From a virus (taxonomy: Duplodnaviria > Caudoviricetes), in the IMG/VR virus record IMGVR_UViG_3300032087_000658, positions 1 through 53,415 of that record: a DNA stretch of 53,415 bases; one strand, 5' to 3'. The notes under the pieces were generated by a model that saw only the letters and a program-made list of their open reading frames with translations, had not been told where the DNA came from and ran no database searches. Positions 27,392-48,989 of the stretch are shown here, piece by piece. A program made the translations under genes and the position numbers. Every line of letters starts with the position of its first letter. The stretch's first letter is position 1.

Positions 27392-27553
27392 ATGAACTTT
27401 TTAAAAAAAATTGACAAATTTATAGACAAACAATGGAGACAAACATGTTCTGCAATATTTTATTTATTTAATTGTAGAAAAAATGAAGTAGATATTGATT
27501 GGCTAAATATGCATAATAATATGATACAAAAAAAGGGGGATAAAAATGAATGA
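27392..27553 (+). CDS. 53-aa hypothetical protein absent from the ORF track (MNFLKKIDKF...KGDKNE)
   Basis: Hand-translated; AAGGA SD; overlaps the next gene. Confidence 0.6.
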   Translation: MNFLKKIDKFIDKQWRQTCSAIFYLFNCRKNEVDIDWLNMHNNMIQKKGDKNE

Positions 27554-27728
27554 ATTTTTATATGATGATGAAGCACCATATGATGTTAATTTTCAAAGAT
27601 GGTATGTTGCTAATTGCATAGAAAGAGAAATTTATAAAGAGCCAAAGCTAGACATAGATAATGCTGAAGTAACATTTAGTAAAATGTGGGGCTTTAAAAA
27701 AATAGAAGGTAAAGTTTTTATAAATTAA
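27546..27728 (+). CDS. Hypothetical protein
   Basis: GGGGG SD; last gene of the plus-strand operon. Confidence 0.65.
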   Translation: MNEFLYDDEAPYDVNFQRWYVANCIEREIYKEPKLDIDNAEVTFSKMWGFKKIEGKVFIN

Positions 27729-27732
27729 GTTA

Positions 27733-27780
27733 ATTACAAGGCACTTTACTTTGCATGGTATCTCCTCAGTGTCTTGTAAT
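27733..27780 (+). ncRNA. Long stem-loop between convergent operons (terminator or candidate sRNA)
   Basis: 13-bp stem ATTACAAGGCACT/AGTGTCTTGTAAT with one G-U; 22-nt loop containing CATGGTATCTCCTC. Confidence 0.5.
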
Positions 27781-27805
27781 GAGCAGCATGTGAATTTGGT
27801 TTAGT

Positions 27806-28033
27806 TTATGTGCTGCTCTTTTTTTCAGAAGAATACATTATATTTAACCCAGCTAAAGTGCATAGACGATTTTTTTCATCTAGACCTTTTTCTGTGAGAT
27901 CATAATTTTGTCCATTAACTTTGATGTAACCATCTGTAATTAATGCAGTCAATAAATCACTAGGTATATCATCACCAAACATAACTGTTAATATGCCACC
28001 TAATCTTTTAGTTTGTGTTTTACTTAGTGCCAT
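27806..28033 (-). CDS. Small hypothetical protein, possibly winged helix
   Basis: LITDGYI...YDLTEKG; coupled to the endolysin stop. Confidence 0.65.
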   Translation of the reverse strand: MALSKTQTKRLGGILTVMFGDDIPSDLLTALITDGYIKVNGQNYDLTEKGLDEKNRLCTLAGLNIMYSSEKKSST

Positions 28034-28476
28034 TAAACGTGTTCCCAGTCATTACCCTCAAATAATAATGATTCTGCTAATCTTCTTCTTGTTAATCCTT
28101 CAAGAACTTTGCCACCTGCTTTGTTCCATCGTTTCATCTGATAAGGCACATCTTCATACGCACCTTGATTTAAAACTTTTAACATAGTTGAAGCGTTTAA
28201 ATTTGCACCACCAAGATTAAATGTCCAAGATACTAATGCATCAAACTGGTGTTGATGTAATGGAAGCTTTACTGCTTTATTGACAGCATCTTCATAGACT
28301 ACTAAATCTTCTAGCAATAATTCTTCTGCACGTTCTTGTGATATGGTCATGCCCATTTGTATACCTTTAGTTGAACCATAACCAATGGTAGGTACATTAG
28401 CAGCACATAAATAACTTTCTAATTTGCACCCTTCAAACTTCTTGATAAGTGCGATTCCTTCTTGTGATATCTTCAT
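28033..28476 (-). CDS. Endolysin, GH24 phage lysozyme
   Basis: IKKFEG, TIGYG, QFDALVSWTFNLG, RWNKAGG, GLTRRR; start re-called at MKISQEG after GGAG. Confidence 0.95.
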   Translation of the reverse strand: MKISQEGIALIKKFEGCKLESYLCAANVPTIGYGSTKGIQMGMTISQERAEELLLEDLVVYEDAVNKAVKLPLHQHQFDALVSWTFNLGGANLNASTMLKVLNQGAYEDVPYQMKRWNKAGGKVLEGLTRRRLAESLLFEGNDWEHV

Positions 28477-28477
28477 A

Positions 28478-28873
28478 TTATTCTCCCCATGTTCCATCTT
28501 CTCGGACTTTGGCTTTCTTTGTGCCACCCCAGTATTCAACTGCGTGTCCTTCTTTAATAAGAATCTGACAAATGCTTTTATTATTTTCATCATAAGGTAT
28601 TCCCAGTATTCTTCCGTACTTGCCCTTTCCTAGTGATTGTACTTTGAAAGCACCAACACATAGTTCTATAAGTCTTTTTTTTGCTTTTAAACCTAGTGCT
28701 TTTTCTTCTAAATTTCTTGTGCGTGATTCAGGAGTATCTATCCCTGCTAATCGCACTCTTTGTTTATGGAGTTTGACATCAAAGCCTAAATCAAGAGTCA
28801 CATCTATGGTGTCTCCATCTATTACCCTTTCTAGTATAGCGTTGTATACGAATGGCGTGACCGATTCAGACAT
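28478..28873 (-). CDS. Thermonuclease (SNase-like)
   Basis: RVIDGDT, RVRLAGIDTPE, GKYGRILG motifs. Confidence 0.93.
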   Translation of the reverse strand: MSESVTPFVYNAILERVIDGDTIDVTLDLGFDVKLHKQRVRLAGIDTPESRTRNLEEKALGLKAKKRLIELCVGAFKVQSLGKGKYGRILGIPYDENNKSICQILIKEGHAVEYWGGTKKAKVREDGTWGE

Positions 28874-28879
28874 AGCTAA

Positions 28880-29047
28880 CTACTTTTGTTTAGCTTTGCC
28901 AATGTTGAGTGCAAGTAATTCAATAAGTTTGTATAACTTAGCAATCATTGCATCATCTTTTGGTGTAGGAGTTAAAGCACAGATTATGGATGCACCGCAA
29001 ACAACACCTGTAATTATTCCCAACCATTCTCCTATCATTCCCATCAT
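28880..29047 (-). CDS. 55-aa membrane protein, holin candidate, absent from the ORF track
   Basis: Hand-translated MMGMIGEWLGIITGVVCGASIICALTPTPKDDAMIAKLYKLIELLALNIGKAKQK; AGGAG SD; lysis context. Confidence 0.7.
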   Translation of the reverse strand: MMGMIGEWLGIITGVVCGASIICALTPTPKDDAMIAKLYKLIELLALNIGKAKQK

Positions 29048-29087
29048 ATTAATCTCCTAATAATGAATGAAATTAAAGTCTATCAAA

Positions 29088-29480
29088 TTATTTGTTCTCT
29101 GACACCTTTTCTTCTTCATTATCTTCTTTGTCATAATCTCTATAATATTTGATAATTGATAAAGTATCTCTTAAATATCTTTTAATTTCTGCCATATTCA
29201 TAGATAGGTTTTCGTACTCTTTACTGGTTAATGAATAATAAGCAATGGCAGGAGCAGAGCCATTCTCGTAATTTTCTAGGTACTCTTTCATTAAATCAGG
29301 AGTTAATATTTCCCAGTCAATATCAACCAATCCAACTTCTAGGGGTAAAGGTGGATGGTAAAGGGGGACTGGCTCTGCAATCGTTACGACCTCAACAGGT
29401 TTAGCAGTGGGCATCATAGAACAGTTTGCAATAACAAAAAGACATGATATTAATATTATGCTTTTAATTTTCATCATCAA
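29088..29480 (-). CDS. Lipoprotein, o-spanin (Rz1-like) candidate
   Basis: Signal peptide with IANC lipobox; Pro-rich segment; overlaps the i-spanin candidate. Confidence 0.65.
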   Translation of the reverse strand: MMMKIKSIILISCLFVIANCSMMPTAKPVEVVTIAEPVPLYHPPLPLEVGLVDIDWEILTPDLMKEYLENYENGSAPAIAYYSLTSKEYENLSMNMAEIKRYLRDTLSIIKYYRDYDKEDNEEEKVSENK

Positions 29481-29859
29481 ACTGGTTTGGGTCTGTTAAA
29501 GCTATTATTTCTTCTTTGACTTTTTTAGTTCCCTTGTTCACAATATTTTCTATTAACTTAGGTTTGCTCAATGCTAAATTATCTAAATCATGTTTTGCAA
29601 AGGTTGTTCGTAGTTTGTTTACTTCTCTTACTGCTTCCTGTTTTTCTTTTTCTATTGCTTGTATCTGCTTTTGTGCCTTCTCTTGGTTGGCAAGATAAGT
29701 TTTAATTGATTCGTTTTGTTGTGCTATTGATTGTTCTAAGGCTATCTGATTGCCTTTTAAAGTAGAGATATTGTCTTGTAATCTATCAATATACCAAAAT
29801 GAACCACTAGCAGTAACTAGCAATAAACCACCTAGTATTATTGATAATTTGAATCCCAT
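29464..29859 (-). CDS. i-spanin (Rz-like) candidate
   Basis: Single N-terminal TM followed by a long coiled coil. Confidence 0.65.
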   Translation of the reverse strand: MGFKLSIILGGLLLVTASGSFWYIDRLQDNISTLKGNQIALEQSIAQQNESIKTYLANQEKAQKQIQAIEKEKQEAVREVNKLRTTFAKHDLDNLALSKPKLIENIVNKGTKKVKEEIIALTDPNQFDDEN

Positions 29860-31616
29860 GTATACACCTGTAATTTCTCGCTTTTACCTTTAGCTTCTAT
29901 TGGGTCTAAAGGTATCAAATCAAATTCTATCGCATTTTCTGTACTTTGACCAATTAGGAGATCAACACCAGCGTTTTTAGTTCCTGATTCTAATCTTGCT
30001 GCTACATTGACTGCATCACCGATAGCTGTGTAATCAAATCTATTTTCACTACCCATATTTCCTATAACCGCATATCCAGTGTTAATTCCTATGCCAATGG
30101 TTACTGGATTTATACCTTTGTCTGCTAAAACATAATTCAGTTCTATCATATTTTTTTGTATATCCATAGCACAAGCCAACGCCTTTGTTTCATGATTTTC
30201 TAAATCAAGGGGTGCATTAAAAATCGCCATCATGGCATCACCAATATATTTATCAACCATACCCCCATGCTTTTGTACTGCTTTTTGTTGAGCAGTAAGT
30301 GCTTGGTTCATAATGTAAGTCACCTGTTCAGGTTCTAGTGTTTCTGATAAAGCTGTAAACCCACGAACATCTGTAAATAAAAATGTTGCGTATCTTTTTT
30401 CTCCACCAAGTTTTAAAAGTTCAGGATTTTTTTGCAGTTGTTTTACTTGTCTTGGGTCTAAATAATGTTCAAATTGTTTCTTAATTTGTAATCTAAGTTT
30501 GTATTGTTCTCTAAATCTTAGATAAAAAGCTATAGAACCTGTAATAAACTGTGAGATCAATGTCCATGTTACATCTAACAAAATACCCCTGTGAATAAGT
30601 TCATATCCTGTATAAGCTGTTGATAACATTATTCCTAGACCTAATACTAAACCCCATGTTATGCCTAAAGTGTTCAATACAAGCCATATAAGGCTTACTG
30701 ATACAATAAATATAAGCATTTCTACAGCTAATGACCAATCAGGTATGTAAGGACTATCTTGTATTAAGATTGATTCTGCTAAAGCACTTTGTATTTTATG
30801 TGGTTCTAATAATCCAACTGGTGTTGCTATCTGTGGCATAACACCATTTGCTGTTACTCCTACAAATACAAACTTACCTGCTACATCCATTTCTTTTAAT
30901 GTAGTTTGTGGCGTATCTACCCAACTTATCCACTTACGACCAAGACTGTCTGTTTTTACTGGTGGTATTCCTCTAATTGATATTTCCTCTATACCATTAT
31001 CATTAGTTTTTATAATGTAAGTTCTAACATCAAATAATGCTTTGTATATTTGTGTACCGAATGATGGTATCCATTCTTTTTTAGGTGTGCTTACAAGTAG
31101 TGGGATTCTTCTAACAAGTTGGTCAACTTCGGTGGGAGCAATGGCTAATCCCTGTAATGTATTATCTGCTAGAGTGTTCAGGTTTTCCTTAACTCCCATA
31201 GATACTATACCATCAACATGGTTGCCTTTGACAACAGTACCAGTAGCTTTTGGGTATTTATTTTTGCCATCTTCAAACATTGCTATAACAGATGGTATGT
31301 ATCCCAAAGTCTTTGCAAAAACTTGATCTCCACCCATTCTATCTGCTTGTGGAAAAGATATTACCCAACCTACCCCTATAGCACCTGAATTAATAAGGTC
31401 TACTTGTATCTCTGCTAATCTTCTTCTTGGAAAAGGATAACCGCCTTCGTTTTCTACATCTTCTTCTGTGATGTTTAATATTACAAAGTTACCTGATGGC
31501 TCATATTTTTTTACAAAGGTATCAAAGGTTTTTAGTTTTAATATTTCAGTTGGTGTGCTTTGATATATAAAAGGTAAACATAAAATTAGTAGTATGGGTA
31601 TGAGCAATTTTTTCAT
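29838..31616 (-). CDS. Membrane class III adenylyl cyclase with periplasmic CHASE2 domain
   Basis: N-terminal TM; CHASE2 (YPFPRRRLA, DQLVRRIPL, TPVG); 3 TMs; FTDVRGFT, DKYIGDAMM, DYTAIGDAVNVAARLES. Confidence 0.95.
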   Translation of the reverse strand: MKKLLIPILLILCLPFIYQSTPTEILKLKTFDTFVKKYEPSGNFVILNITEEDVENEGGYPFPRRRLAEIQVDLINSGAIGVGWVISFPQADRMGGDQVFAKTLGYIPSVIAMFEDGKNKYPKATGTVVKGNHVDGIVSMGVKENLNTLADNTLQGLAIAPTEVDQLVRRIPLLVSTPKKEWIPSFGTQIYKALFDVRTYIIKTNDNGIEEISIRGIPPVKTDSLGRKWISWVDTPQTTLKEMDVAGKFVFVGVTANGVMPQIATPVGLLEPHKIQSALAESILIQDSPYIPDWSLAVEMLIFIVSVSLIWLVLNTLGITWGLVLGLGIMLSTAYTGYELIHRGILLDVTWTLISQFITGSIAFYLRFREQYKLRLQIKKQFEHYLDPRQVKQLQKNPELLKLGGEKRYATFLFTDVRGFTALSETLEPEQVTYIMNQALTAQQKAVQKHGGMVDKYIGDAMMAIFNAPLDLENHETKALACAMDIQKNMIELNYVLADKGINPVTIGIGINTGYAVIGNMGSENRFDYTAIGDAVNVAARLESGTKNAGVDLLIGQSTENAIEFDLIPLDPIEAKGKSEKLQVYTWDSNYQ

Positions 31617-31622
31617 AGATAC

Positions 31623-31631
31623 ATCATAACA
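31623..31631 (-). promoter_or_regulatory. Extended -10 promoter giving a probably leaderless cyclase mRNA
   Basis: TGTTATGAT 6 nt before the ATG at 31616; no SD. Confidence 0.55.
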
Positions 31632-31636
31632 GAAAA

Positions 31637-31677
31637 GTACAAAAAGGGTTGTTTATTACAAATAAATATCTATAATT
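31637..31677 (+). promoter_or_regulatory. Early promoter for the denV-like gene
   Basis: GTACAA-N3-GGGTTGTTTATT-N13-TATAATT, matching 24511-24551. Confidence 0.75.
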
Positions 31678-31706
31678 ATATTTATATTAATTTGAAAGGA
31701 GATATT

Positions 31707-32195
31707 ATGAATATATTTGCAGTAGAACAATGCCCTGAACAAGCCGCTAGAGCTTTACCTGATAAACTGATAGTTAAAATGCCATTAGAAACAGCACAAA
31801 TGCTTTCTACGGCACACAGATATCTTAGTCCTACAGAGTATTGTGAAGAAAAAAACTTATACAAGAAAGCATATTACAACCATCCTTGCACTGTTTGGGC
31901 AAGAGAAACACATGAAAACTATAGATGGTTGCTAATACATTTTATAACTTTGTGCGAAGAATACTATTTGCGATATGGCAGAATACATGCTTCTTGGGAT
32001 AAATTATGGGATGGCTTAAAAATATTTCCAATGAATATTAAAGAAGGCAGCTTAACACCTTTTGCACAAGCTATGCCTGAACAATACAAAAACCCTGTTG
32101 ACCATATTGATGCATATCGTACATACATGATTGCAGAAAAGCATTATGCAAAATGGGAAAAAGGTAGAGACAAGCCTGTTTGGTGGTCTAATTAG
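31707..32195 (+). CDS. Pyrimidine-dimer DNA glycosylase family protein (T4 DenV-like)
   Basis: MNIF, DKLIVKMPLETAQMLST, NHPCTVWAR, FAQAMP, AYRTY motifs; start re-called after AAAGGAG. Confidence 0.85.
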   Translation: MNIFAVEQCPEQAARALPDKLIVKMPLETAQMLSTAHRYLSPTEYCEEKNLYKKAYYNHPCTVWARETHENYRWLLIHFITLCEEYYLRYGRIHASWDKLWDGLKIFPMNIKEGSLTPFAQAMPEQYKNPVDHIDAYRTYMIAEKHYAKWEKGRDKPVWWSN

Positions 32196-33285
32196 ATTGT
32201 GTAATCTTTATTGTGCTACCCTCACCACCATTAATGGTAACAATGTTTGAAACACCATTTTGTATAAAGATAACAGTATAACTCGCACTTCCATCTATAT
32301 CTATTCTTGCTGAACTTTCTACACTTCGTAACAAAGTTAATTTTTCACCAGTATAGAAAGTTGTAATCTGTGTTTCTAAGTCTTGACCAAACTTTGTACC
32401 TTTAATGTTGGTTGTTATGGCATCTTGACCAAGCACATCTTCTTCTTTTGCAACTTCTAATGCATCTATAACATCTAGCAAATCTTCTAGGAAGTTGACA
32501 TCAAGATAGTTTATATCTAATTCTGTAAACTCTAATTCATCTTCTTTTAAAAAATCTTCTTCTAAGTAATCTATATCTAAATCATCAAAGTCTAAGATAT
32601 TTTTCTTCTGCACTACAGTTTCTTCACCTTCAATAATTTGTTCTTCAGGTGGTGTCACTATTAACATATTGTCTATGAGATCAAGCGTTAAATCTAAAAT
32701 TACTGGACGTGTTGGAGAATTTTCAAATACGGATACAGTTGTTGCTTCATAAGGTTTATTTAAAATAACACTACCTGTAGCTGTCATAACCTCTATTTCA
32801 CCACTAGATAAACCATATTTATCAGGTAAAAGAATTATAAGACTACGTCCAAGTTCATCTACAGTTGCTGTAAAGTCTGTTCCTCTAATGGCTATATTTG
32901 CTGTGGGTGTTTTAAGTTGTATGTTTTGTTTATCAATTTTGTTTAGATTGCCTGTAATAAACCTTGCTGTTCCTAATCCAAAGGTAAGAGCCATCTTTGA
33001 TTTAGATGGGTCAGGGTCATAGATATATTCGTCAATTAATAATTCAGAGTGTTCTGTTAATCTAACTGTTGAATCATCAAGAAAGGTAATAGCCATACGA
33101 CCATTAGTAGTTATGGCTTGATCATTACTTTGTATGCCGAGGTTTAATTCAGCTTGTAATGGTTCGTCTCTTAATATTCGTGCAACACCATTTAGTTCTG
33201 ATATATCACCTATATCAACAACCTGTTGCTGTTCCCCCATCGTTTTGAGTGATACAAATATTAGAGTTAGAAGTAGTAGTCTCAA
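32188..33285 (-). CDS. Exported FecR-domain protein with acidic linker
   Basis: Signal peptide; ITFLDDSTVRLTEHS, GTARF, TPTANIAIRGTDF motifs. Confidence 0.9.
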   Translation of the reverse strand: MRLLLLTLIFVSLKTMGEQQQVVDIGDISELNGVARILRDEPLQAELNLGIQSNDQAITTNGRMAITFLDDSTVRLTEHSELLIDEYIYDPDPSKSKMALTFGLGTARFITGNLNKIDKQNIQLKTPTANIAIRGTDFTATVDELGRSLIILLPDKYGLSSGEIEVMTATGSVILNKPYEATTVSVFENSPTRPVILDLTLDLIDNMLIVTPPEEQIIEGEETVVQKKNILDFDDLDIDYLEEDFLKEDELEFTELDINYLDVNFLEDLLDVIDALEVAKEEDVLGQDAITTNIKGTKFGQDLETQITTFYTGEKLTLLRSVESSARIDIDGSASYTVIFIQNGVSNIVTINGGEGSTIKITQSN

Positions 33286-33949
33286 TTTTTAACCAATCCT
33301 TTGCAAGTGTTGATGATTGTATGATGTTAAATGTATTACTGCTACCATCTAAATCCATGTAAAAATATCCTGAATCAGATGATGTGTTTCCTGAATATCC
33401 ACTAGCTGTAAAGTTGATAGTGTTTGAACCACCATTAATATCTACAAAGTTAATAGCATTAGCATAATCAATATCAAAATTTAATTCATTAGAATCACCT
33501 AAGATTGTCCAGTCTAAATCAAGATAAGATGAATCAGCGTTTTCTGCTATTTCTAAATCAAATTCATTACTGCTTCCAGTAACATCTAAATATAGATTTA
33601 TGTAATCTGCACTTATAAGACCAGTGCTATTTAATAAGATATCCATAACATTACTATCACCATCAAACTCAAAGAACCCAGTAAAGTTATCACCATCAAT
33701 AGCATCTGACCTAAAGATATTGCTTGAACCAATCTGATTAATATCTAAAGTCATACTAATACCATCAAGGTCAAGAGCAGTCATAGTTCCTGATACAGCA
33801 GAACTACCACCAATGAGGTTAGAGCTACCAAGTTGTTCTAAATCTATGGAAGCAGTATTACCGCTTTGGTCTACATAAATTTCATTATCCGCGTATGTTT
33901 GCAATGCAGTCATCATCACAAACAGGCTCATTAATTTCATTTTCTTCAT
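33215..33949 (-). CDS. Secreted curlin-like repeat protein (CsgA/CsgB-like)
   Basis: Signal peptide; repeated hydrophobic-x-hydrophobic-(Q/x)-x-G-(S/D)-S-N units; directly after csgG. Confidence 0.7.
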   Translation of the reverse strand: MKKMKLMSLFVMMTALQTYADNEIYVDQSGNTASIDLEQLGSSNLIGGSSAVSGTMTALDLDGISMTLDINQIGSSNIFRSDAIDGDNFTGFFEFDGDSNVMDILLNSTGLISADYINLYLDVTGSSNEFDLEIAENADSSYLDLDWTILGDSNELNFDIDYANAINFVDINGGSNTINFTASGYSGNTSSDSGYFYMDLDGSSNTFNIIQSSTLAKDWLKIETTTSNSNICITQNDGGTATGC

Positions 33950-34757
33950 ATTTCCAGTACCCTTTATCGTAACCGATAATAATAAGTTCTAATACAGCAC
34001 CTTCTATAGCTTTCATTAAGGCTATAGTAGTACTCTCGTTGCGTGAAACACCAAATTCCACTTCAACTAACTCAGTACCCATTTCTATGAATTTAAACAC
34101 ATCTTGTGACTGTCCATAGCTAAGTATTGTCTTACTAGACATTACTTCTACTAGTATTTCACCAGTAGCTACAGAAACCATTCTAAGGCTTACAGTGATT
34201 GTATCTTCACGATACTGCACACTAGAGCCTATTCCTAAATATCTTGCTCCTGCACCACCTGTGATTAGGTTACTATCATACGACACAACAGCACCTTCAA
34301 GCAATACACCTGCAAACAGCAAAGGCATTATAGTTTTTTTATCTTCTAATTCTTCTCTTGTACTTCTAATAATTTGTCTTTCTTTTGTTAAGTTATCTAA
34401 ACCAACTCTTTCAACAACTCTAAAAAATTCACCATTACTTGCGTGTTTTAATGCTCTTATTAATAGATTGCTTGGTGCTTGAGTTATAGCACTAGAAAAT
34501 AAAGCAAACTCACTGTTGCTCTTCCTTTGTCCTGTTTGGTCTGTAAAAGCAGTTGGATATACAGCAACTACTGGTTTTGTTTGTGGTGCTTGTACGTTTA
34601 ATAAATCCTGTGACTGTAAAGAAAAAATACTAGGCTTATCTTTGCTTTTATGTTGGAATCTTATCTGTTGCGTGTCCTCTATGACACTATTAATAGAACA
34701 ACTAGAAAGTAAAAGAACCAATAGGTAATGTGATCTCTGTAATATTGCCATCTGCAT
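33885..34757 (-). CDS. csgG: Curli secretion pore CsgG
   Basis: LLLSSC lipobox; VAVY..FTDQTGQRK, FRVVER.GLDNLTKERQIIR, PLLFAG, GGAGARYLGIG, QYRED motifs. Confidence 0.95.
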   Translation of the reverse strand: MQMAILQRSHYLLVLLLSSCSINSVIEDTQQIRFQHKSKDKPSIFSLQSQDLLNVQAPQTKPVVAVYPTAFTDQTGQRKSNSEFALFSSAITQAPSNLLIRALKHASNGEFFRVVERVGLDNLTKERQIIRSTREELEDKKTIMPLLFAGVLLEGAVVSYDSNLITGGAGARYLGIGSSVQYREDTITVSLRMVSVATGEILVEVMSSKTILSYGQSQDVFKFIEMGTELVEVEFGVSRNESTTIALMKAIEGAVLELIIIGYDKGYWKYEENEINEPVCDDDCIANIRG

Positions 34758-35247
34758 CAGTTATTTTAAGTGTTATAAATTGTCCATCAGATGTGTATTC
34801 TATAGTATTACCTTCAAGTTCTATAGTACCTTCAGTTTGTGGGGTTTCACCGAAAAGATTATCTACAAGTTGTCTTGATAGTTGAGCATAGATACGTGAC
34901 TCTAAGTTACGCATAAATCTTGCAAGTGTGGTGTTCTCTTTATCTCTTTCTATTTGTTCTTGTAAGGCTTTAATCTCTTCTTTGATTGTCATCTTCCTAT
35001 TAAACTCTTGGTTTTCAATAGTCAAGTAATGTGAACTCGTGTTGATGCCACTAAAAGATGGTGATTTGAACTTATGAACTATTTGGTCTGCTTTTATGTT
35101 AATTACTAAAATACCAATCAATAAAATAAAACCAATAACTGTAACTGTGTAAGCAATTCTATTTTTACTTAATTCTTCTGCTTTACGTTGTTTTTTTGTC
35201 ATTTTTTTCTTAATCTTTTCTTTGGTCATCTCTATCCGCCTTTGCAA
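34702..35247 (-). CDS. csgF: Curli assembly component CsgF
   Basis: Signal/TM then HKFKSPSFSG (compare CsgF FQFRNPNFGG); LESRIYAQLSRQL; adjacent to csgG. Confidence 0.85.
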   Translation of the reverse strand: MQRRIEMTKEKIKKKMTKKQRKAEELSKNRIAYTVTVIGFILLIGILVINIKADQIVHKFKSPSFSGINTSSHYLTIENQEFNRKMTIKEEIKALQEQIERDKENTTLARFMRNLESRIYAQLSRQLVDNLFGETPQTEGTIELEGNTIEYTSDGQFITLKITDADGNITEITLPIGSFTF

Positions 35248-35560
35248 TTTTACTGCTATCTATTAACTGTGGTACTCCTAAAATAGTTTTTATAAGGGTG
35301 TCTTGTCTTATGATTTCATTATCTAAGCTACGCACTCTATCAATTAATGCTACAAGTATTCCATGTTGTGAGTCAAGTTTTGTGCCTAATCGTTCTTCAA
35401 TAGCTGCTATCTGTGATTCTACTTTTTCATCAACATTATCAAGTTTGGTTTCCATGCCATCTACAATACGCATGATTAATTTATATATAAACCATCCTAA
35501 ACCAATTGCTGCTGCTATTGGAAAACCAACTTCTTGAATTACTTTTATTGCTGCATCCAT
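35210..35560 (-). CDS. Single-TM coiled-coil protein, holin-like
   Basis: IQEVGFPIAAAIGLGWFIY TM then coiled coil; overlaps csgF. Confidence 0.6.
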   Translation of the reverse strand: MDAAIKVIQEVGFPIAAAIGLGWFIYKLIMRIVDGMETKLDNVDEKVESQIAAIEERLGTKLDSQHGILVALIDRVRSLDNEIIRQDTLIKTILGVPQLIDSSKIAKADRDDQRKD

Positions 35561-35562
35561 AA

Positions 35563-35907
35563 TTATTCAACTATAGGTGAAACTTCATCTGCTCCATAAA
35601 TTTGCCATGTAAAATACACGTCTAAATCATCTTCTGTAACTGTGTTTTTATACCATTCTATTACTTTAGCATTCGTTAAATTTTCTACTAATATAAAATC
35701 ACTTGGTAGACCATTATCTTGTATTGAATAAACTCCATCTAAAGATGAATACATTTTCTCAGTCATGGTTTGTGTATTGTCTGCTTGGTCAACAGCTGAT
35801 ACTTCTACACAAACATTTTTAACAATTTGCGTATCATCATTTTGACTTAGTGGCATAGTTGATATGCTGTCAAAAGTGTATGTGTAGTTAAAATTATGTA
35901 CTGCCAT
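35563..35907 (-). CDS. Tail-tip-associated small acidic protein
   Basis: Coupled to the tail tip gene; DFILVENLTNAKVIEW pattern. Confidence 0.55.
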   Translation of the reverse strand: MAVHNFNYTYTFDSISTMPLSQNDDTQIVKNVCVEVSAVDQADNTQTMTEKMYSSLDGVYSIQDNGLPSDFILVENLTNAKVIEWYKNTVTEDDLDVYFTWQIYGADEVSPIVE

Positions 35908-38900
35908 TATATTTCTGAAAATTTGTAAAAACCTAGTTGTACATTGCTCAATTGTCTATTGTTACCATCGCCTTGTGCTAAAATATAAACACTTAAAGTT
36001 CTACTTGTACCACTTATTTTTCTAATCATAAAATCTTTTTGCACCATTTTATAAGTTGAGTCAAATCTATCTACACCTGACCATGTTTGTGCTTGACCTG
36101 AATTATACTGAGCATAACCCTGATTTGCTATTGGTAAATTTAATGCAAATAACTGGTCTACACCATATGCAAAATCATCTCTTAATTCAAAACTAAAACC
36201 TGTTCCATAAGTACCATCACCTGCAACAATAGATAGAGTTTTAACCTGTCCACTTCCTCCAAAAACTCTGCAAAAAATATGATATATACCTGTAGCTGTT
36301 CCAATATCTGCAACTTTTTTCAAACGCATTGTATTGCTCTGCCAAGAACCTATAGTAGAACCTGAAACTGTTTGTGCATCAAAATCAAGAGCTAAATCAG
36401 TAACATTAATTCTATCAGCAGTAATAGTGTTTGAAGCAATTTGTGTAGCTGTTATTGTGCCTGTGGCTATTTCTGTAGCTGTTACCTGTCCAGCAGCAAT
36501 TTTTGCTGTAGTTATTGCATCAGCATTGATTTTATCAGTAGTAATAGCATTAGATATAATTTTATCAGCAGTAATTGCGTTAGAAGCTATTTCTGTAGCA
36601 GTAATTGTTCCTGCTGTAATTTTAGCAGCAGTAACAGCATTGGCAGCAAGTTCATCAGTAGCAATTGCACCAGCAGCAATATTTGAAGCTGTGATTGTAT
36701 CTGTAGCTATTTGTGTTGAAGTGATAGTACCAGCAGCGATCTCACTAGCTGTTATTTGATTTGCTGCAATTTTTGCAGTGGTAATAGCATTAGCAGCAAT
36801 CTTATCTGTAGTAATAGCATCAGCAATAATCTTATTAGCTGTAACTGCATTTGTGGCTATGGTATCGGCAGTTATTGCACCTGCATTAATCTTTGCAGTC
36901 GTAATAGCGTTAGCAATAATTTTATCTGATGTGATTGCATTTGTTTGAATGTTATCAGCAACAATTGCGTTTGCAGCAACTTTATCAGCAGTCACAGCAT
37001 CAGCTGCTATTTTTACAGCAGTAATGGCGTTACTTGCAATAGTGTCAGCTGTAACAGCACCTGCGTTTATTTTTGCAGTCGTAATTGCATTTGCAGTTAT
37101 CTTTGCGGTTGTTATTGCATTATCACTTATTTTTGTACTAGTTATAGCATTAGCTGCAAGATTTGCAGTCTGAACAGCATTATCTGCAAGTTTTGCGTTT
37201 GTGACTGCATCTGTACCTAGTTTTGTATTTGTAATAGCACCTGTGGCAATTTTTGCTTCACTTATAGCATTTGCAACTATCTGTGCTGTATTTACTGCGT
37301 TATCAGCTATTTTGGCATTGGTAACAGCATCAACACCCAATTTTGCTTCTACGATAGCACCAGCAGCAATAACATCACCTTGTATAGCATCTACTGCTAT
37401 TTTTGCATTAGTAACTGCTTCAGATGCTAGTTTTACAGTTGTAATTGCACCATCTACTATTTCTCCTGCATCTACGTTTGTAAAACTACCTGTAGCTACA
37501 GAAGTAAATGCTGAATGTACGTCTGAATGATTTACAGACCTTGCCCAAAAATAATACGTTGTACCAGCAGTTAAACCATCTTGTGTTCCAAACAAAGTAC
37601 TAGTCTTTTTACCATTTTGCCCATAAATCGTTTCTACTAAATAAGTGTCATCTGTTGGTGTTGTATTTGATGTTCTTCTATAAATCTTAGTTGCCTTGAG
37701 ATCAGCACTAGTTGAATTTATCCAAGATACAACTATGTTAAATGCTTGTCCTGTTGATGCAGTTAAACTTGTTGGTACTGCTGGTGCATCTGTTGGTGCT
37801 GCTATTGTTATATTAACAACACTGGTATAAGCACTAGCTACACCATTTACGTCAATATGTCGTGCTTTTACGTTATAAGTTTTTCCAACTACAACATTAG
37901 GGAGAAGGGCTACAGCAACACCTTTTCCTACAGTAAAGTCAGATGTATATGCACCATCTGTACTTAGCTTATACGCCACCTCTGTAAGTGTGACCTTATC
38001 GCTAGAGTTGTTTGTCCACGTAGCTTTTATATCTACTTTGGTTGTAACACCATCTTTGTTTGTTTGTTGTGCTAGTGCTAAGTTTGATGGTGCTGTTACT
38101 GCATATGTACCAGTACCGACATCACTACCTTCTGATTGACCAGTTGTATAATCACTTGTAGCAAAATTAAATACACTAGATGCGACTTCTTTTAGTTCCA
38201 ACTGTGTAGCCATAACAGGAATATCACCATCTGTTATAACTTGCATATTAGTGGATATTACTTCAAAGACTTTTTGACTGTAACCCATTCTTTCGTTGGT
38301 TAAATATACCCAATCGTTAGGTTGTAGTCGCATATATTTTAAAGTTACTAAACAAGATATTGATGTGGTCTGTCTTTGACTTTTTAATGCTATTCTGCCT
38401 AATCTTTGTGCCATTGTATCTGTAACTGTAAATGGCAATTGTGATTCCATTTGTTTTACATAATTAGCAGTAGATTCGCCACTAGGTGTATCTGCATTAA
38501 GCATTGTAGTATCTTGGTGAACTTCAGCATCAGCTGCTACATATCCTTGTGTAGAGTCAACATATAAAGGTTTAACACTATTGAATAAATTACCTGAACT
38601 TGGGTTTGTTTGTATTTGTACATCATTTAATAAATCATCATCAGTAATAATTAATGATGGTGTTTGTGATGCACCTGCAAAAACATTAAATTTACCATTT
38701 ACATAAGAAACTTTACCTGCCATAGAACTAAGTATTGATTCTATAATTCCATTACCATTTGCACTAAAGTTAGTAAATCCGTTTGACGTGTATCTTTTTT
38801 CTGTTGTAGAACCATCTGCTAAAGTTACATTTTGTTCACAGATATTAGCAGCACTTGCAAAACCACCTGCATTTGTTGTGTCATTAATCTCATCATTAGT

Positions 38901-39677
38901 AGCTTTAATACCATATTGAGTGTTTGTTAAATAGTCTCTAATTTGTAAAGCTGGATTATCTGTCCAAACAGTTGTGTTAGTTCTTGGGTCATAACACTTT
39001 TTACCTTTTACTAAAAATGATATTGCTGGTATTCCACCACCAAATTTTTCAGCATCAAAAACCATTTGAATATATACGTATGCAACATCTTGAAACTTAT
39101 CTGATGTACCCATTGAACTTAATTGTGCATTCATAAAACCATCAACAGCAGTTTGACTACCATCTTTGTATGAATAACGCATTAATCTACCACTACCAAA
39201 ATTATTATCGTTTTCAGTATTTGTATATTCTGAATTTGTTACTGTGTAAACAGTAGAACCACTTATAGTGCTGGTGCTAGTACTCAAATCTATATCATTA
39301 ACACGAACAGATGTGAGTTCTTCTATTTCGTGTCCTGCAATTGCAACAACAAGATGCAATAAATAGTTGTCATTTCCAGTAGTTTCCATGTGGACTATTG
39401 TTCCACCTACACGACATTTACCATATATTATTTGTCGTGGTGCTACAGCTTCCCTTGTTGCAAACTTACTACCAAAATTACCAGCTGAAGCATCAATACC
39501 TTTTGATGTCATCTTGCCAATAACACCACCAATTAAGGTTGTTGCAAAAGTAAATGCTGCTGCTGCTGCTGCACCACTTAAACCAAAAGCAGTGTATGCT
39601 ATATCAATACGACCTGTAGTTACTACTATAAATACTACAAGTGCTGCAATGACTGCTTGTTTAATCTGTTTAGCCAT
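35907..39677 (-). CDS. Central tail tip / host-specificity protein (gpJ-like) with FN3 domains and a decapeptide repeat stalk
   Basis: RQIIYGKCRVGG, VKGKKCYDPR, WTDNPAL..RDYL motifs; FN3 (TTYYFWARSV); AITTAKIAAN repeats. Confidence 0.9.
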   Translation of the reverse strand: MAKQIKQAVIAALVVFIVVTTGRIDIAYTAFGLSGAAAAAAFTFATTLIGGVIGKMTSKGIDASAGNFGSKFATREAVAPRQIIYGKCRVGGTIVHMETTGNDNYLLHLVVAIAGHEIEELTSVRVNDIDLSTSTSTISGSTVYTVTNSEYTNTENDNNFGSGRLMRYSYKDGSQTAVDGFMNAQLSSMGTSDKFQDVAYVYIQMVFDAEKFGGGIPAISFLVKGKKCYDPRTNTTVWTDNPALQIRDYLTNTQYGIKATNDEINDTTNAGGFASAANICEQNVTLADGSTTEKRYTSNGFTNFSANGNGIIESILSSMAGKVSYVNGKFNVFAGASQTPSLIITDDDLLNDVQIQTNPSSGNLFNSVKPLYVDSTQGYVAADAEVHQDTTMLNADTPSGESTANYVKQMESQLPFTVTDTMAQRLGRIALKSQRQTTSISCLVTLKYMRLQPNDWVYLTNERMGYSQKVFEVISTNMQVITDGDIPVMATQLELKEVASSVFNFATSDYTTGQSEGSDVGTGTYAVTAPSNLALAQQTNKDGVTTKVDIKATWTNNSSDKVTLTEVAYKLSTDGAYTSDFTVGKGVAVALLPNVVVGKTYNVKARHIDVNGVASAYTSVVNITIAAPTDAPAVPTSLTASTGQAFNIVVSWINSTSADLKATKIYRRTSNTTPTDDTYLVETIYGQNGKKTSTLFGTQDGLTAGTTYYFWARSVNHSDVHSAFTSVATGSFTNVDAGEIVDGAITTVKLASEAVTNAKIAVDAIQGDVIAAGAIVEAKLGVDAVTNAKIADNAVNTAQIVANAISEAKIATGAITNTKLGTDAVTNAKLADNAVQTANLAANAITSTKISDNAITTAKITANAITTAKINAGAVTADTIASNAITAVKIAADAVTADKVAANAIVADNIQTNAITSDKIIANAITTAKINAGAITADTIATNAVTANKIIADAITTDKIAANAITTAKIAANQITASEIAAGTITSTQIATDTITASNIAAGAIATDELAANAVTAAKITAGTITATEIASNAITADKIISNAITTDKINADAITTAKIAAGQVTATEIATGTITATQIASNTITADRINVTDLALDFDAQTVSGSTIGSWQSNTMRLKKVADIGTATGIYHIFCRVFGGSGQVKTLSIVAGDGTYGTGFSFELRDDFAYGVDQLFALNLPIANQGYAQYNSGQAQTWSGVDRFDSTYKMVQKDFMIRKISGTSRTLSVYILAQGDGNNRQLSNVQLGFYKFSEI

Positions 39678-40086
39678 CTATACGCCACACCTTAAGAATA
39701 TTTACATTATTCTTAACACCAATACAATCATCTGTTGGTGTAAGAACACTTAAGCCATCTGATATACCTACTAATTCTGTTTCTTCTTTATATACAACTA
39801 AATCACCTTTGCTTACGAAGGCTTTTTCTATTTCTTTAACACCCTTTGCTTTACAAGCCTTTTCAATGCTTTTTAGTAAAGTTTTGTTATATGTTTTTAT
39901 AGCCTTCATAGCACTATCTTCATCATTCCATTTAAGTGTTTTAGGTATTAAATCTTCACCAGTAATTTCTTTAATAACAGCATTAGAAAATTTACAACAA
40001 TCCCATGAACCCCATTTAAAAGGTTTATTTTTATTTTTTTCAATAAATGCATTGAATTTAATTTCCCAATCAACAATCTTTTTCAT
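39670..40086 (-). CDS. NlpC/P60-like tail tip protein
   Basis: PFKWGSWDCC...ITGED...GDLV; position between hub and tip genes. Confidence 0.8.
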   Translation of the reverse strand: MKKIVDWEIKFNAFIEKNKNKPFKWGSWDCCKFSNAVIKEITGEDLIPKTLKWNDEDSAMKAIKTYNKTLLKSIEKACKAKGVKEIEKAFVSKGDLVVYKEETELVGISDGLSVLTPTDDCIGVKNNVNILKVWRIDG

Positions 40087-47024: not shown

Positions 47025-48989
47025 TCATTCATTTTCTAATGTTTCTATTCTTGATTTTAAATCTTCTATAATTACTTGTTGTTCTTGTATAGCTTTTATT
47101 AAGTAGGGTGTAAGTTTTCCGTAATCAACACCAAAAGGTTCTTCGGTTACATCATCTCCACCTTCTATAACAACATTAGGAATTACATCTTTTAATTCTT
47201 GTGCAATCATACCAATATCATGTTTACTACTACTTTTCCAATCAAATTCTCTTACTTTTACATTTTTAATTACATCTAATTGAGAAGAAGCATCAACAAT
47301 ATTTTCTTTAAGTCTTTCATCAGAAGTTGTATTAAAAAGTACTGAACTTGCACCATTTTGTGATACTGAACCAATATTTCCACCACCATCATAAAAAGCT
47401 ATAAATTTTCCTTGTGAATCAGTATCAACACTAAATGTACATCTTAATATGTGGTTACTTGTAGCAACCGAAACATCAGGGTCAATAAAATTGACTACAC
47501 CACCACTTATACTATTACCTGCAACTTGTAAAAAACTGCCATAGCTACTACCATCAAAACCATTAGTCATACGCCCACTACTATCAATACGCCATCTTTC
47601 TGTTGTGCCACCAGCATAAAATCTTAAATCAGCACTATTAAATGCTTGTCCTGTTGAAGCTATACCAGCACCTTCACTAGAAGTACCAGCAGTAAAACTA
47701 ATTTTTGCCCCATCATTTACTGATGTTCCTGCATGATTTAGGTTTAATGCTTTAAGAACTCCTGAACCACCACTACCTGCTCTTTTTATTGAAACTTCTC
47801 CCACACTATCAATACGCATTCTTTCTGTGCCGTTAGTATGAACCTGAAAGTCGTTTGTACCATTTCTTAATCTTGTAAGACTACTAGTATTAGCAGATTG
47901 CATCGTAATATCACAATTAGAATTACCAGTAACAAAGTTTGCTGATACAGGACTTGCTGAAGATGTGGTCTGTGTGATTGTTCCATTAGAATCAATACGC
48001 ATTCTTTCTGTTACTGTTGGGTCTCCAGTTGTTGCTGCTGAATTAGAAAATATTACATTACCTTCAACAAACTGCATTGCAACACCTGCTGTAGCATTAG
48101 AGCCATCTCTAACCCTAAAATTACCTGCTGAATTGTAAAAAAGATTATCTAATAGTGCTGTTTGCCCAGTGCTTGAACCAGTATCATTAGCTAAAAGTGT
48201 TCCTCTAGCACCAATTTGTAATACATCATGCCCTGCAAATCTATTAGTTTGTGGAACTACACCTATACCAAAGGCACCTGAAGAATCAACTGTAACCCTA
48301 GATTCAGGAGTGCTACCTGTCCATATTTGAACAGAGGTGTCACCACCTAAAATTAAATTACCACCAGCAACACCTTGTCCATCAGCTCTTATGTGATATA
48401 AACCATTAGCATCCATGTAATGTTGACCATACAAAGTAGTAGAATTATATCTAAGTGCTAGTGTATTATTTGAGCCATTCCCTGTTCCAATAGTTCCATG
48501 TTGAATTTCTAATGAGTTTGCTGGATTTGTTAATCCAATTCCAACTCTATTATTTGTAGCATCAACAACTAAAGTAGAAGTATCAACAGTCAAGCCATCA
48601 GCAACAACTGTACCTGTTACACTAACCCCTGCACTGCTTGTCGCTAGTTTTACAGCATTATCGTGATAAAGAGATACTGCACCATCAGCTGTACAAACTA
48701 TGCTTTCCTCGTTGAGTTTTGCTTGTATGTGTACTGAACCATTGGTATCAGCTAAATAGATATTACCTGTGGAATTGCTGATATAAGAATTAGAACCATC
48801 GTGGTAGATCTCAAGATCTCCACCAGTACCTATCTTTATCTTATCGTTGTCTCCCATAATCATATGGGTAGCTAGTGTTAGTTCACCTGTGACACCTAAA
48901 GTTCCTGAGATCGCTATATTAGTATCTAACTTAGCACTGGTTACTGCTCCGTCTACTATTAACTCTGTTGGTACTAATGTATATGCCAT
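47025..48989 (-). CDS. Fibre protein with C-terminal intramolecular chaperone (peptidase S74)
   Basis: ERMRIDS repeats; TSDERLKENI, GMIAQEL, VDYGKL, KAIQEQQ. Confidence 0.9.
   Translation of the reverse strand: MAYTLVPTELIVDGAVTSAKLDTNIAISGTLGVTGELTLATHMIMGDNDKIKIGTGGDLEIYHDGSNSYISNSTGNIYLADTNGSVHIQAKLNEESIVCTADGAVSLYHDNAVKLATSSAGVSVTGTVVADGLTVDTSTLVVDATNNRVGIGLTNPANSLEIQHGTIGTGNGSNNTLALRYNSTTLYGQHYMDANGLYHIRADGQGVAGGNLILGGDTSVQIWTGSTPESRVTVDSSGAFGIGVVPQTNRFAGHDVLQIGARGTLLANDTGSSTGQTALLDNLFYNSAGNFRVRDGSNATAGVAMQFVEGNVIFSNSAATTGDPTVTERMRIDSNGTITQTTSSASPVSANFVTGNSNCDITMQSANTSSLTRLRNGTNDFQVHTNGTERMRIDSVGEVSIKRAGSGGSGVLKALNLNHAGTSVNDGAKISFTAGTSSEGAGIASTGQAFNSADLRFYAGGTTERWRIDSSGRMTNGFDGSSYGSFLQVAGNSISGGVVNFIDPDVSVATSNHILRCTFSVDTDSQGKFIAFYDGGGNIGSVSQNGASSVLFNTTSDERLKENIVDASSQLDVIKNVKVREFDWKSSSKHDIGMIAQELKDVIPNVVIEGGDDVTEEPFGVDYGKLTPYLIKAIQEQQVIIEDLKSRIETLENE

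Follow-up and report, generated by a model that had tools for sequence, protein, structure and literature searches.

Results

The cassette and its published relatives

The DNA analyzed here (hereafter the window, meaning the whole stretch) is a complete IMG/VR virus record of 53,415 bases, IMGVR_UViG_3300032087_000658, and our subject is a cassette of six minus-strand genes within it, which encode a small membrane protein, the CsgF and CsgG components of a type VIII secretion (curli) pore, a curlin-repeat protein, a FecR-domain protein and a class III adenylate cyclase with a CHASE2 domain. We are highly confident that this is the type VIII secretion (curli) cassette already published from marine phages, that its six genes are inherited together, and that it is carried here by a siphovirus-like 53-kb phage. 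The gene set itself is already known; the phage lineage and the genomic position are new. An initial annotation of the same DNA had named these genes, and open reading frame (ORF) calls and domain matches find all of them where it had placed them on the minus strand; its assignment of the window to a phage agrees with the status of the record as a complete virus. The cassette genes and the gene inserted among them are the following (position, strand, product, supporting match with E value).

35210-35560, minus: membrane/coiled-coil protein, 116 amino acids (aa), first cassette gene; phrog_18771 (function unknown), 2.2e-16
34702-35247, minus: CsgF; PF10614, 3.5e-18; phrog_35372, 1.1e-44
33885-34757, minus: CsgG; PF03783, 1.4e-49; E. 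coli CsgG 4uv2/4uv3, 2.5e-43 over residues 49-272
33215-33949, minus: curlin-repeat protein, 244 aa; homology to HTVC008M gp016 and Melnitz gp101
32188-33285, minus: FecR-domain protein, 365 aa; PF04773, 5e-10 over residues 59-144; phrog_37870, 1.1e-70
31692-32195, plus: Pyr_excise (DenV-like) protein, an insert outside the cassette; PF03013, 9.6e-10; phrog_624, 1.9e-57
29838-31616, minus: CHASE2 class III adenylate cyclase, 592 aa; PF05226, 1.4e-23 (residues 12-307); PF00211 Guanylate_cyc, 1.9e-20 (residues 410-583)

As the initial annotation had described, the genes overlap one another. Taken as longest ORFs, the small membrane protein gene and csgF share 38 nt, csgF and csgG 56 nt, csgG and the curlin gene 65 nt, and the curlin and FecR genes 71 nt, and at the far end the start of an i-spanin gene overlaps the stop of the cyclase gene by 22 nt. 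The same annotation had the cyclase following FecR directly and missed the Pyr_excise gene between the two, which is the single plus-strand exception among the long ORFs from 28,033 to 39,677.

In the portions of their article drawn on here, Wittmers et al. (2022; PMC9599517) describe the arrangement "HK"-CsgF-CsgG-CsgA/B-FecR-(CsgA/B)-AC (AC, adenylate cyclase) in pelagimyophages and podoviruses of the HTVC023P type, point out that bacterial curli operons lack FecR, HK and AC, and infer an alphaproteobacterial origin of the cassette with transfer between virus families. The same portions report the cassette at all 65 ocean stations examined, at ~0.1% of assembled viral proteins, and its detection in metatranscriptomes. 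The window shows this layout, with csgF and csgG adjacent, curlin after csgG, the presumed "HK" before csgF, and FecR followed by the cyclase, and the belief of the initial annotation that no such phage system had been described has to be given up in view of that article. Pelagibacter phage HTVC008M (7562-13807, gp014-019) and Methylophilales phage Melnitz (gp99-104) carry csgF, csgG, curlin, FecR, a second curlin-repeat gene and the cyclase in that order, between ssb and tail genes and not by annotated lysis genes.

Among the texts covered by our literature search, Wittmers et al. alone joins CsgG, phage, FecR and adenylate cyclase, and none combines CHASE2, phage and curli. The word CHASE2 is absent from the searched main text of Wittmers et al. 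and from the other phage-curli texts searched, supplements lying outside that search; the words spanin, holin and lysozyme are likewise absent from the searched text of Wittmers et al. Relative to these texts, the idea that the cassette signals across the cell envelope appears to be new, and the comparisons of sequence and gene order below lend it some support.

Conservation in related phages

Synteny was assessed in the best 80 of 108 IMG/VR relatives found with the window CsgG, which at 68-99% identity are close kin and not independent lineages, and presence was counted only over loci with enough sequence on the relevant side. Ratios of nonsynonymous to synonymous substitution (dN/dS) were computed pairwise (NG86) between the window and relatives at 70-97% protein identity, and are rough values as dS is ~1.

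Small membrane protein: present in 61/61 assessable loci; median dN/dS 0.057 (35 pairs)
CsgF: present in 70/70; median dN/dS 0.18 (21 pairs)
CsgG: median dN/dS 0.14 (52 pairs)
Curlin-repeat protein: present in 79/79; median dN/dS 0.11 (38 pairs)
FecR-domain protein: present in 76/76; median dN/dS 0.12 (49 pairs)
Cyclase: present in 62/62; median dN/dS 0.16 (25 pairs)

The gene order is identical in every assessable IMG/VR locus. The co-occurrence of FecR and cyclase genes with csgG that the initial annotation had proposed to survey is therefore found throughout these relatives, and it extends to HTVC008M and Melnitz. All six genes are under purifying selection, the gene for the small membrane protein being the most conserved of the cassette; the lysis genes, taken for comparison, have medians of 0.12-0.18. 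Such low values in all six genes argue that the cassette is not a decaying passenger, the outcome which the initial annotation had named as speaking against its own proposal.

The gap between the FecR and cyclase genes measures 5-160 nt in most loci, and this junction is an insertion site for unrelated genes. It holds a DenV-like gene on the opposite strand in the window and in one relative (L021, 2757-3251), a gene for a 543-aa C-5 cytosine DNA methylase in another (L011, 6119-7750), and in the myophages the second curlin-repeat protein, which has a PA14 domain in HTVC008M.

A profile scan of 185,579 species genomes with the FecR alignment yielded 17 loci and did not reach true bacterial relatives; 13 of the 17 carry two or more cassette genes in order. 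These thirteen contigs (L084-L096) are filed in metagenome-assembled genomes (MAGs) of unrelated taxa, with labels such as Parvibaculum, Neomarinimicrobiota, Nisaea, Saprospirales, Synechococcus, Sphingobacteriales and others, with Rhodobacterales, Planctomycetaceae, Pelagibacter and Flavobacteriaceae among the further labels. Most likely these are phage contigs that ended up in bacterial bins, and at 142 kb and 121 kb two are as large as myophage genomes.

The CHASE2 cyclase

Pfam matches and hydrophobic segments at residues 1-23 and 291-334 give the cyclase the order of a first transmembrane segment, the CHASE2 domain, a transmembrane block and a cyclase domain predicted to be cytoplasmic. 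CHASE2 is predicted to be periplasmic, since one hydrophobic segment (1-23) precedes it and another begins at 291. Its closest relatives of solved structure are the cyclase domain of Cya2 (2w01), its fusion with a bacteriophytochrome (6fht) and P. aeruginosa CyaB (3r5g). Residues D416, K456, D460, N537 and R541 align with those of CyaB and Cya2, and T530 stands seven residues N-terminal to N537. We take D416 and D460 to be the two metal-binding positions, K456 and T530 to be purine-specifying, and N537 and R541 to be the transition-state pair. The position of K456 is occupied by Glu in the guanylate cyclase Cya2 and by Lys in the Cya2-derived chimera 6fht. The alignment to 3r5g and 2w01 thus bears out the initial annotation, which had listed the metal-binding Asp, the Lys/Thr and the Asn/Arg residues as kept.

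Among 83 viral homologues of 30-96% identity, D416, K456, D460 and R541 are invariant (83/83) and N537 is present in 82/83, while position 530 holds Thr in 46, Ser in 36 and Asp in 1; the catalytic columns stay invariant when 10 bacterial homologues are added to the alignment. Judged from these alignments, the catalytic residues are intact, and the enzyme is predicted to make cyclic adenosine monophosphate (cAMP). Complex prediction for CHASE2 (residues 20-293) with the FecR-domain protein (residues 18-215) gave 0.01 and 0.00 against a mark of 0.32, a result that speaks neither for nor against binding.

The other cassette proteins

CsgG has a lipobox-like motif, LLSSC, that ends at Cys20 of the translation, and the loop that aligns to the constriction of E. 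coli CsgG keeps only the Phe of the residues which presumably line it. CsgF has an N-terminal hydrophobic signal or anchor segment (residues 29-58) and matched no solved structure at E 0.01 or better. The 244-aa protein has a signal-like N-terminal segment and repeated G-S/D-S-N motifs. It gave no Pfam match of its own even at E up to 10; it aligns with HTVC008M gp016 (34% identity) and Melnitz gp101 (30%), the latter matching Curlin_rpt (PF07012) at 8.6e-6. From its repeat pattern and this homology, it is a putative secreted subunit of an amyloid fibre.

The FecR-domain protein is laid out as a signal-like N-terminus, the FecR beta-domain, an acidic D/E-L-rich linker and a C-terminal beta-rich part, with no hydrophobic segment of transmembrane grade. 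At E 0.1 or better, it had no Pfam match beyond FecR, save a sub-threshold flgE_D3 in the tail. The curlin-like look of that tail ('...IQNGVSN..INGG..ITQSN') prompted a profile comparison of the last 75 residues with the curlin alignment, and the curlin-repeat assignment was rejected on the result (1.3%, E 0.04, 15 columns).

The 116-aa protein has one hydrophobic segment (residues 7-33) followed by a coiled-coil tail. Its gene appears from its position to be the "HK" of Wittmers et al. A histidine kinase is ruled out by the lack of any kinase domain match: no Pfam family scored above cut-off, and neither HisKA nor HATPase matched. The initial annotation had called this gene holin-like. Its holin match is weak (phrog_1296, E 0.006), the stronger PHROG matches are families of unknown function, and it travels with the cassette in all lineages examined. 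In the ESM Atlas, the nearest clusters are all viral hypothetical proteins, and the named neighbors (CdvA-like, Holin_BhlA and Mu releasin, scoring 0.87-0.88) serve as leads only. Homologues of the gene precede csgF in HTVC008M and Melnitz in two copies each. Some relatives have tandem paralogues (L053, 9046-9584; L065, 1137-1717; L081, 7642-8228); the window has one copy.

Bacterial counterparts

Bacterial counterparts were sought in a sample of 301 alphaproteobacterial genomes, the neighborhoods being 20-kb stretches around the 20 best cyclase matches. The cyclase matched in 175 of the 301 genomes at E 1e-10 or better, and the best matches share 33-39% identity in ORFs of about 750 aa. A FecR-domain ORF adjoins the cyclase in 9/20 loci, with FecR confirmed by Pfam in all nine; three of these nine partners are large, with FecR followed by Big_9/cadherin and/or RTX repeats. 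Profiles of the viral CsgG, CsgF, curlin and small membrane protein found none of these at the bacterial CHASE2-cyclase loci (0/20). CsgG itself matched in 5/301 genomes at 43-50% identity, all five having csgF beside csgG, and neither FecR nor a cyclase lies within 10 kb of any of these five csgF-csgG loci (0/5). Two modules that lie apart in the sampled bacteria, a csgF-csgG secretion module and a FecR/CHASE2-cyclase sensor pair, are thus brought together in the cassette, which agrees with the cited portions of Wittmers et al.; since the modules are separate in the sampled Alphaproteobacteria, the join is phage-specific within the sample searched.

Exporters other than CsgG recur beside the bacterial cyclases. 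Six of the 20 loci (L134, L136, L144, L148, L149 and L150) have type I secretion genes (ABC, HlyD) and/or a TolC-like gene next to the cyclase, and four (L137, L139, L143 and L152) have Slam-like genes (TPR plus SlipAM barrel) there, the barrel being confirmed by Pfam in L137 and L143 and L152 giving TPR matches only. Altogether, at least one of these two kinds of partner, FecR or exporter, is found at 15/20 loci. As a rough control, 12 cyclase loci of lower rank were examined. Three of them (L162, L164 and L166) have FecR or type I secretion neighbors, and all three match the CHASE2 part; the 5 loci with no match over the N-terminal CHASE2 part have no such neighbors. These neighborhoods hint at a common design that would combine a CHASE2 sensor with an exporter in the outer membrane and a FecR-domain protein that is exported.

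Two arrangements deserve description in their own right. Locus L136 (5266-18154, genome G220) has on the same strand ABC, HlyD, CHASE2 cyclase and TolC-like genes and a gene for a FecR plus RTX-repeat protein of ~1,900-2,000 aa; as read from its gene content it is a receptor cyclase inside a type I secretion operon, of which no description was found in the literature searched. In L143 (8773-15213) and L152 (8764-14060), the Slam-like, FecR and cyclase genes lie on one strand, with a GAF-domain protein beside the L143 array.

Genomic setting of the cassette

The cassette lies between the tail fibre and the lysis genes of the window, with the following neighbors.

35907-39677, minus: J-like central tail fibre of 1256 aa, encoded by the final large tail gene ahead of the cassette; phrog_5616, 1.9e-73; phrog_31 'central tail fiber J', 1.2e-56
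35563-35907, minus: DUF7936 protein, 114 aa, between the tail fibre gene and the cassette; PF25590, 9.1e-6, slightly below cut-off; no PHROG match
29464-29859, minus: Rz-like i-spanin; phrog_739, 6.6e-13
29088-29480, minus: Rz1-like o-spanin lipoprotein; phrog_812, 4.7e-15; N-terminal hydrophobic segment, residues 1-26
28880-29047, minus: 55-aa single-pass membrane protein, holin/antiholin candidate; hydrophobic segment 4-29; no Pfam match; with SNase and lysozyme in relatives
28478-28873, minus: SNase (staphylococcal-nuclease-like); PF00565, 7.8e-13
28033-28593, minus: endolysin, phage lysozyme; PF00959, 5.9e-47
27781-27818, no strand: strong hairpin, 16-bp stem, T runs; closes the minus-strand late unit and faces the plus-strand genes that converge on it and stop at 27728

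The lysis set contains both an endolysin and an i-spanin/o-spanin pair. Two small single-pass membrane proteins, of 55 and 116 aa, are the holin candidates, the weak holin match falling to the 116-aa one only. In the relatives, 40/57 loci have a spanin, lysozyme, SNase or 55-aa gene no more than 1.5 kb downstream of the cyclase. Directly upstream of the cassette stands an SNase or 55-aa gene in 25/55, a tail fibre gene in 4/55 and nothing recognized in 26/55. Some relatives have the order 55-aa protein, SNase, cassette, spanins, lysozyme, which places the cassette in the midst of the lysis genes.

The hairpin at 27781-27818 is likely a two-way terminator. Between 27500 and 40000 there are 6 terminator-like sites, against 5.4 in shuffled sequence, and it is the only strong one; on the minus strand from 28000 to 40000 no terminator-like site is comparable to it. 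A promoter scan of 27500-40000 was uninformative (41 promoter-like sites, against 60.5 +/- 8.7 in shuffles). The position of the cassette among lysis genes would most simply reflect late co-expression, though it may also bear on the timing of lysis. In one marine metatranscriptome run, 0.28 of the sampled words were found and contigs fell on relatives of the lysis genes, the cyclase, curlin, CsgG and CsgF, which is not proof of cassette transcription, as the library may contain DNA and the contigs are strandless. The bin 31670-32086 was uncovered in that run, from which no inference is drawn.

The phage genome

Profile matches in the window identify head genes (HK97-type major head protein, protease, portal and large terminase), connector genes (head-tail adaptor, head closure protein and neck protein) and tail genes (tail terminator, 146-aa major tail protein, 628-aa tape measure, Dit and J-like fibre). 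Family A polymerase (PolA, PF00476) gave no match in the complete 53.4-kb record, and no tRNA genes were found in the window. In the cited portions of Wittmers et al., PolA is a core gene of the HTVC023P-type podoviruses, which have a mean genome of 58.8 kb. With PolA missing and a tape measure, Dit, major tail protein and tail terminator present, the window phage is by gene content siphovirus-like and not a PolA podovirus of the HTVC023P type.

The best cultured match of the head protein is from a Rhizobium phage (49%). Of five related viral records, two have the tape measure of the window, at 62% and about 50% identity, whereas PolA occurs in another; with CsgG still 72% identical, the cassette is thus shared by tape-measure-bearing and PolA-bearing phages. 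Going by these marker genes, the cassette is found in three tail types, that is, in T4-like, PolA-bearing and tape-measure-bearing phages, which makes it more credible that its genes are transferred and selected together. The window stretch is present in 20 seawater/marine sequencing runs from 9 studies.

Other features of the genome lie apart from the cassette. In the portal ORF (676 aa, 11218-13248, minus), the portal match covers residues 41-484, and residues 457-676 share 58-61% identity with 'major capsid protein' stretches of CRP-701, CRP-821 and other small Roseobacter phages. The portal may carry an additional domain, or those phage records may be wrongly annotated. There are three more very large tail-fibre-like proteins, all on the minus strand (93-6908, 2271 aa; 47025-48989, 654 aa; 48991-51765, 924 aa), and fibre genes fill roughly a quarter of the genome.

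Discussion

We tentatively propose, at a probability somewhat short of even, that the cassette as a whole acts as a trans-envelope mechanism in which the exporter and the FecR protein set the output of the CHASE2 cyclase. Late in infection, CsgG and CsgF would build an outer-membrane channel, through which the curlin-repeat protein and possibly also the FecR-domain protein would be exported. The FecR-domain protein would then act on the periplasmic CHASE2 domain of the inner-membrane cyclase, so that cAMP synthesis in the infected cell would follow the condition of what has been exported, or an outside cue that reaches it. In S. meliloti, CyaD1 without CHASE2 makes cAMP constitutively, which suggests that CHASE2 keeps the enzyme off until relieved. 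The receptor interpretation put forward in the initial annotation gains from the strict co-occurrence of the genes, from the precedent of NsrA as stated in PMC13001267 (see below), and from the exporter and FecR neighbors of bacterial cyclases; the novelty that it had claimed for the gene set did not survive, and its link to lysis is a matter of position. With the cyclase recognized as a CHASE2 receptor, FecR as a standard bacterial companion of it, and exporters as neighbors of such pairs, the picture of curli plus regulators becomes testable, and one can ask if cAMP synthesis is governed by the exporter and the FecR protein.

Several observations weigh against this proposal. The contact between the parts, the nature of the cue and the reader of cAMP are all elements that we infer. 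No cyclic nucleotide (cNMP)-binding domain was found in the window, nor in HTVC008M, Melnitz and three related viral contigs (0/5), and in the family to which G003, a MAG titled Candidatus Pelagibacter, belongs, the domain (PF00027) occurs in only 2 of the 41 genomes searched. SAR11-type hosts have no obvious cAMP reader by this count; that family holds the host of HTVC008M. The route through a host CRP that the initial annotation had suggested therefore has no known reader in this family, and the near-absence of cNMP-binding proteins in the Pelagibacter family, together with their absence from the phages, raises the question of who reads the cAMP. In the cited portions of Wittmers et al., the cyclase is sometimes missing from podovirus cassettes. 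The foreign inserts tolerated at the FecR-cyclase junction imply that tight translational coupling of the two genes is not needed. In S. meliloti, the plant signal is still perceived without smc02177, which encodes a FecR-domain protein. As for the bacterial counts, they were drawn from a single sample with two same-genome locus pairs, with L137 and L139 cyclases that share 35 N-terminal residues, and with no formal background control, and the placing of CsgG and CsgF in an "exporter slot" is an analogy and not homology. As a separate observation, many small alphaproteobacterial genomes had one cyclase-domain match in the class-wide search.

A wider form of the proposal is, in our opinion, unlikely. 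It would have the phage set up a sensor across the whole envelope of the cell that it will soon lyse, CsgG and CsgF threading a FecR "antenna" and a curlin fibre to the surface and the cue being sibling virions, fibres or debris of neighboring infected cells, or envelope damage. Contact with the cue would release the hold of CHASE2 on the cyclase, and cAMP, acting via a receptor, would delay or trigger the action of the adjacent holin, spanins and endolysin, or block superinfection. If true, the phage would have a counterpart of T4 lysis inhibition that works through a cyclic nucleotide, and an outer-membrane exporter, a FecR exoprotein and a CHASE2 sensor would constitute a general, as yet unnamed class of bacterial signaling, with type I secretion, Slam and type VIII secretion versions.

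The explanation that we regard as the most serious competitor, although one of minority probability, starts from the effector: the cassette would make curli on infected cells, and FecR, the cyclase and "HK" would only regulate secretion (Wittmers et al., 2022; Zaragoza-Solas et al., 2020). The benefit might be aggregation, or the "sibling capture" proposed in the cited portions of Zaragoza-Solas et al. (2020; PMC7029224); alternatively, the cell might be shielded from superinfection, or the pore might serve for uptake. That CsgG, CsgF and the curlin-repeat protein are all present and conserved agrees with it, as do the distribution data with which it was published, the RNA-library contigs on relatives of the cassette and the metatranscriptome detection in the cited portions of Wittmers et al. 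However, Melnitz-infected cells showed no clumping in cytograms or transmission electron microscopy (Buchholz et al., 2022; PMC9004378), and the supposed "HK" has no kinase domain. No cNMP-binding regulator was found in the phages, and no CsgD-like one turned up, although no CsgD search was made. The cassette, moreover, lies in a late unit without a strong internal terminator, so that a regulator of its own transcription has little target, and the FecR-cyclase pair occurs in bacteria at loci without curli genes (0/20). A part of the same gene content could serve the timing of lysis, as Buchholz et al. proposed for the pore and the initial annotation for cAMP: an ungated CsgG-CsgF pore, or cAMP, would set the lysis time in a way that resembles the periplasmic sensing of T4 lysis inhibition. 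The location of the cassette between tail fibre and lysis genes, the 22-nt overlap of cyclase and i-spanin, the lysis genes within 1.5 kb downstream in 40/57 relatives and the SNase or 55-aa gene directly upstream in 25/55, the failure to find a CsgE gate in the window, and the weak likeness of the 116-aa protein to small lysis membrane proteins (phrog_1296, 0.006; Atlas, 0.87) all lean in this direction. The ordinary lysis set is nevertheless complete, with lysozyme, Rz/Rz1 and a small membrane protein, and 17/57 loci have no recognized lysis gene downstream. The cassettes of HTVC008M and Melnitz, placed between ssb and tail genes, are not beside annotated lysis genes either, so that the link to lysis timing drawn by the initial annotation comes down to position. 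No cAMP reader was found in the phages, and PF00027 is in only 2/41 Pelagibacter-family genomes. Accessory genes are, besides, common at late-operon ends, as in lambdoid phages. Taking these together, we consider a role in lysis control very unlikely.

Two further explanations do without any joint function. The curli and FecR/cyclase modules could be independent passengers that are merely linked, with the cyclase acting alone, for example in metabolic takeover or in interference with host defence signaling. The modules are indeed separate in the bacteria sampled, foreign genes can lie between FecR and cyclase, and cassettes without the cyclase appear in the cited portions of Wittmers et al. 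(PMC9599517). Against this, the genes co-occur strictly and in fixed order in every assessable locus, that order is the same across T4-like, PolA-bearing and tape-measure-bearing phages, and the FecR gene is always on the curli side, overlapping the curlin gene; this makes mere linkage rather improbable in our judgment. The cassette could also be a recent host-derived passenger, decaying or neutral, and the alphaproteobacterial origin given in the cited portions of Wittmers et al. would suit that idea. With six intact ORFs, dN/dS of 0.06-0.18, D416, K456, D460 and R541 kept in 83/83 homologues and the stretch present in 20 seawater runs from 9 studies, we give it hardly any credence.

Comparison with known systems

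The E. coli CsgBAC/CsgDEFG system has in common with the window the CsgG lipoprotein pore, CsgF and a curlin-repeat substrate; the window adds a FecR protein and a cyclase. No match to CsgE (PF10627) was found in the window at E 1 or better, and no search for CsgC or CsgD was made. The likeness of the window CsgG to the nonameric E. coli pore rests on the sequence match and the lipobox-like motif. From the FecA-FecR-FecI system the window protein shares the periplasmic FecR domain, PF04773, but it lacks the N-terminal anti-sigma domain and the membrane span. Since, in addition, no Sigma70_r2 (sigma-70 region 2) partner was found in the phage, a role of the FecR protein as an anti-sigma factor is ruled out.

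Closer to the sensor part of the cassette is the operon of a LysM-FecR (COG4254) protein and a CHASE2 histidine kinase in Burkholderiales and P. aeruginosa (Voronina et al., 2016; PMC5192318), in which, as in the window, a secreted FecR protein is encoded beside a CHASE2 membrane sensor. It differs in its output, a histidine kinase and response regulator, in the LysM carried by its FecR protein and in having no secretion pore. In S. meliloti, as stated in PMC13001267, the CHASE2 cyclases CyaD1, CyaD2 and CyaK sense a signal, a plant protein, via the outer-membrane barrel NsrA and respond with cAMP. The NsrA-CyaD1/CyaD2/CyaK-Clr system thus also combines CHASE2 cyclases with an outer-membrane protein, and SMc02177, the periplasmic FecR-domain protein mentioned above, is next in tag number to cyaD1; the window has CsgG/CsgF in place of NsrA, and no reader of the Clr/CRP type was found in its phage.

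The nearest known system is the viral type VIII secretion (curli) cassette of HTVC008M, Melnitz and other marine pelagiphages and OM43 phages, which has the same genes in the same order as the window, with identities to HTVC008M of 44% for CsgG, 44% for CsgF, 37% for FecR and 33% for the cyclase. Compared with these two phages, the window has no second curlin gene and has in that place a DenV-like gene on the other strand. In contrast to the published viral curli cassettes, that of the window belongs to a phage with siphovirus-type tail genes and no PolA, and it sits between the tail fibre gene and the lysis genes.

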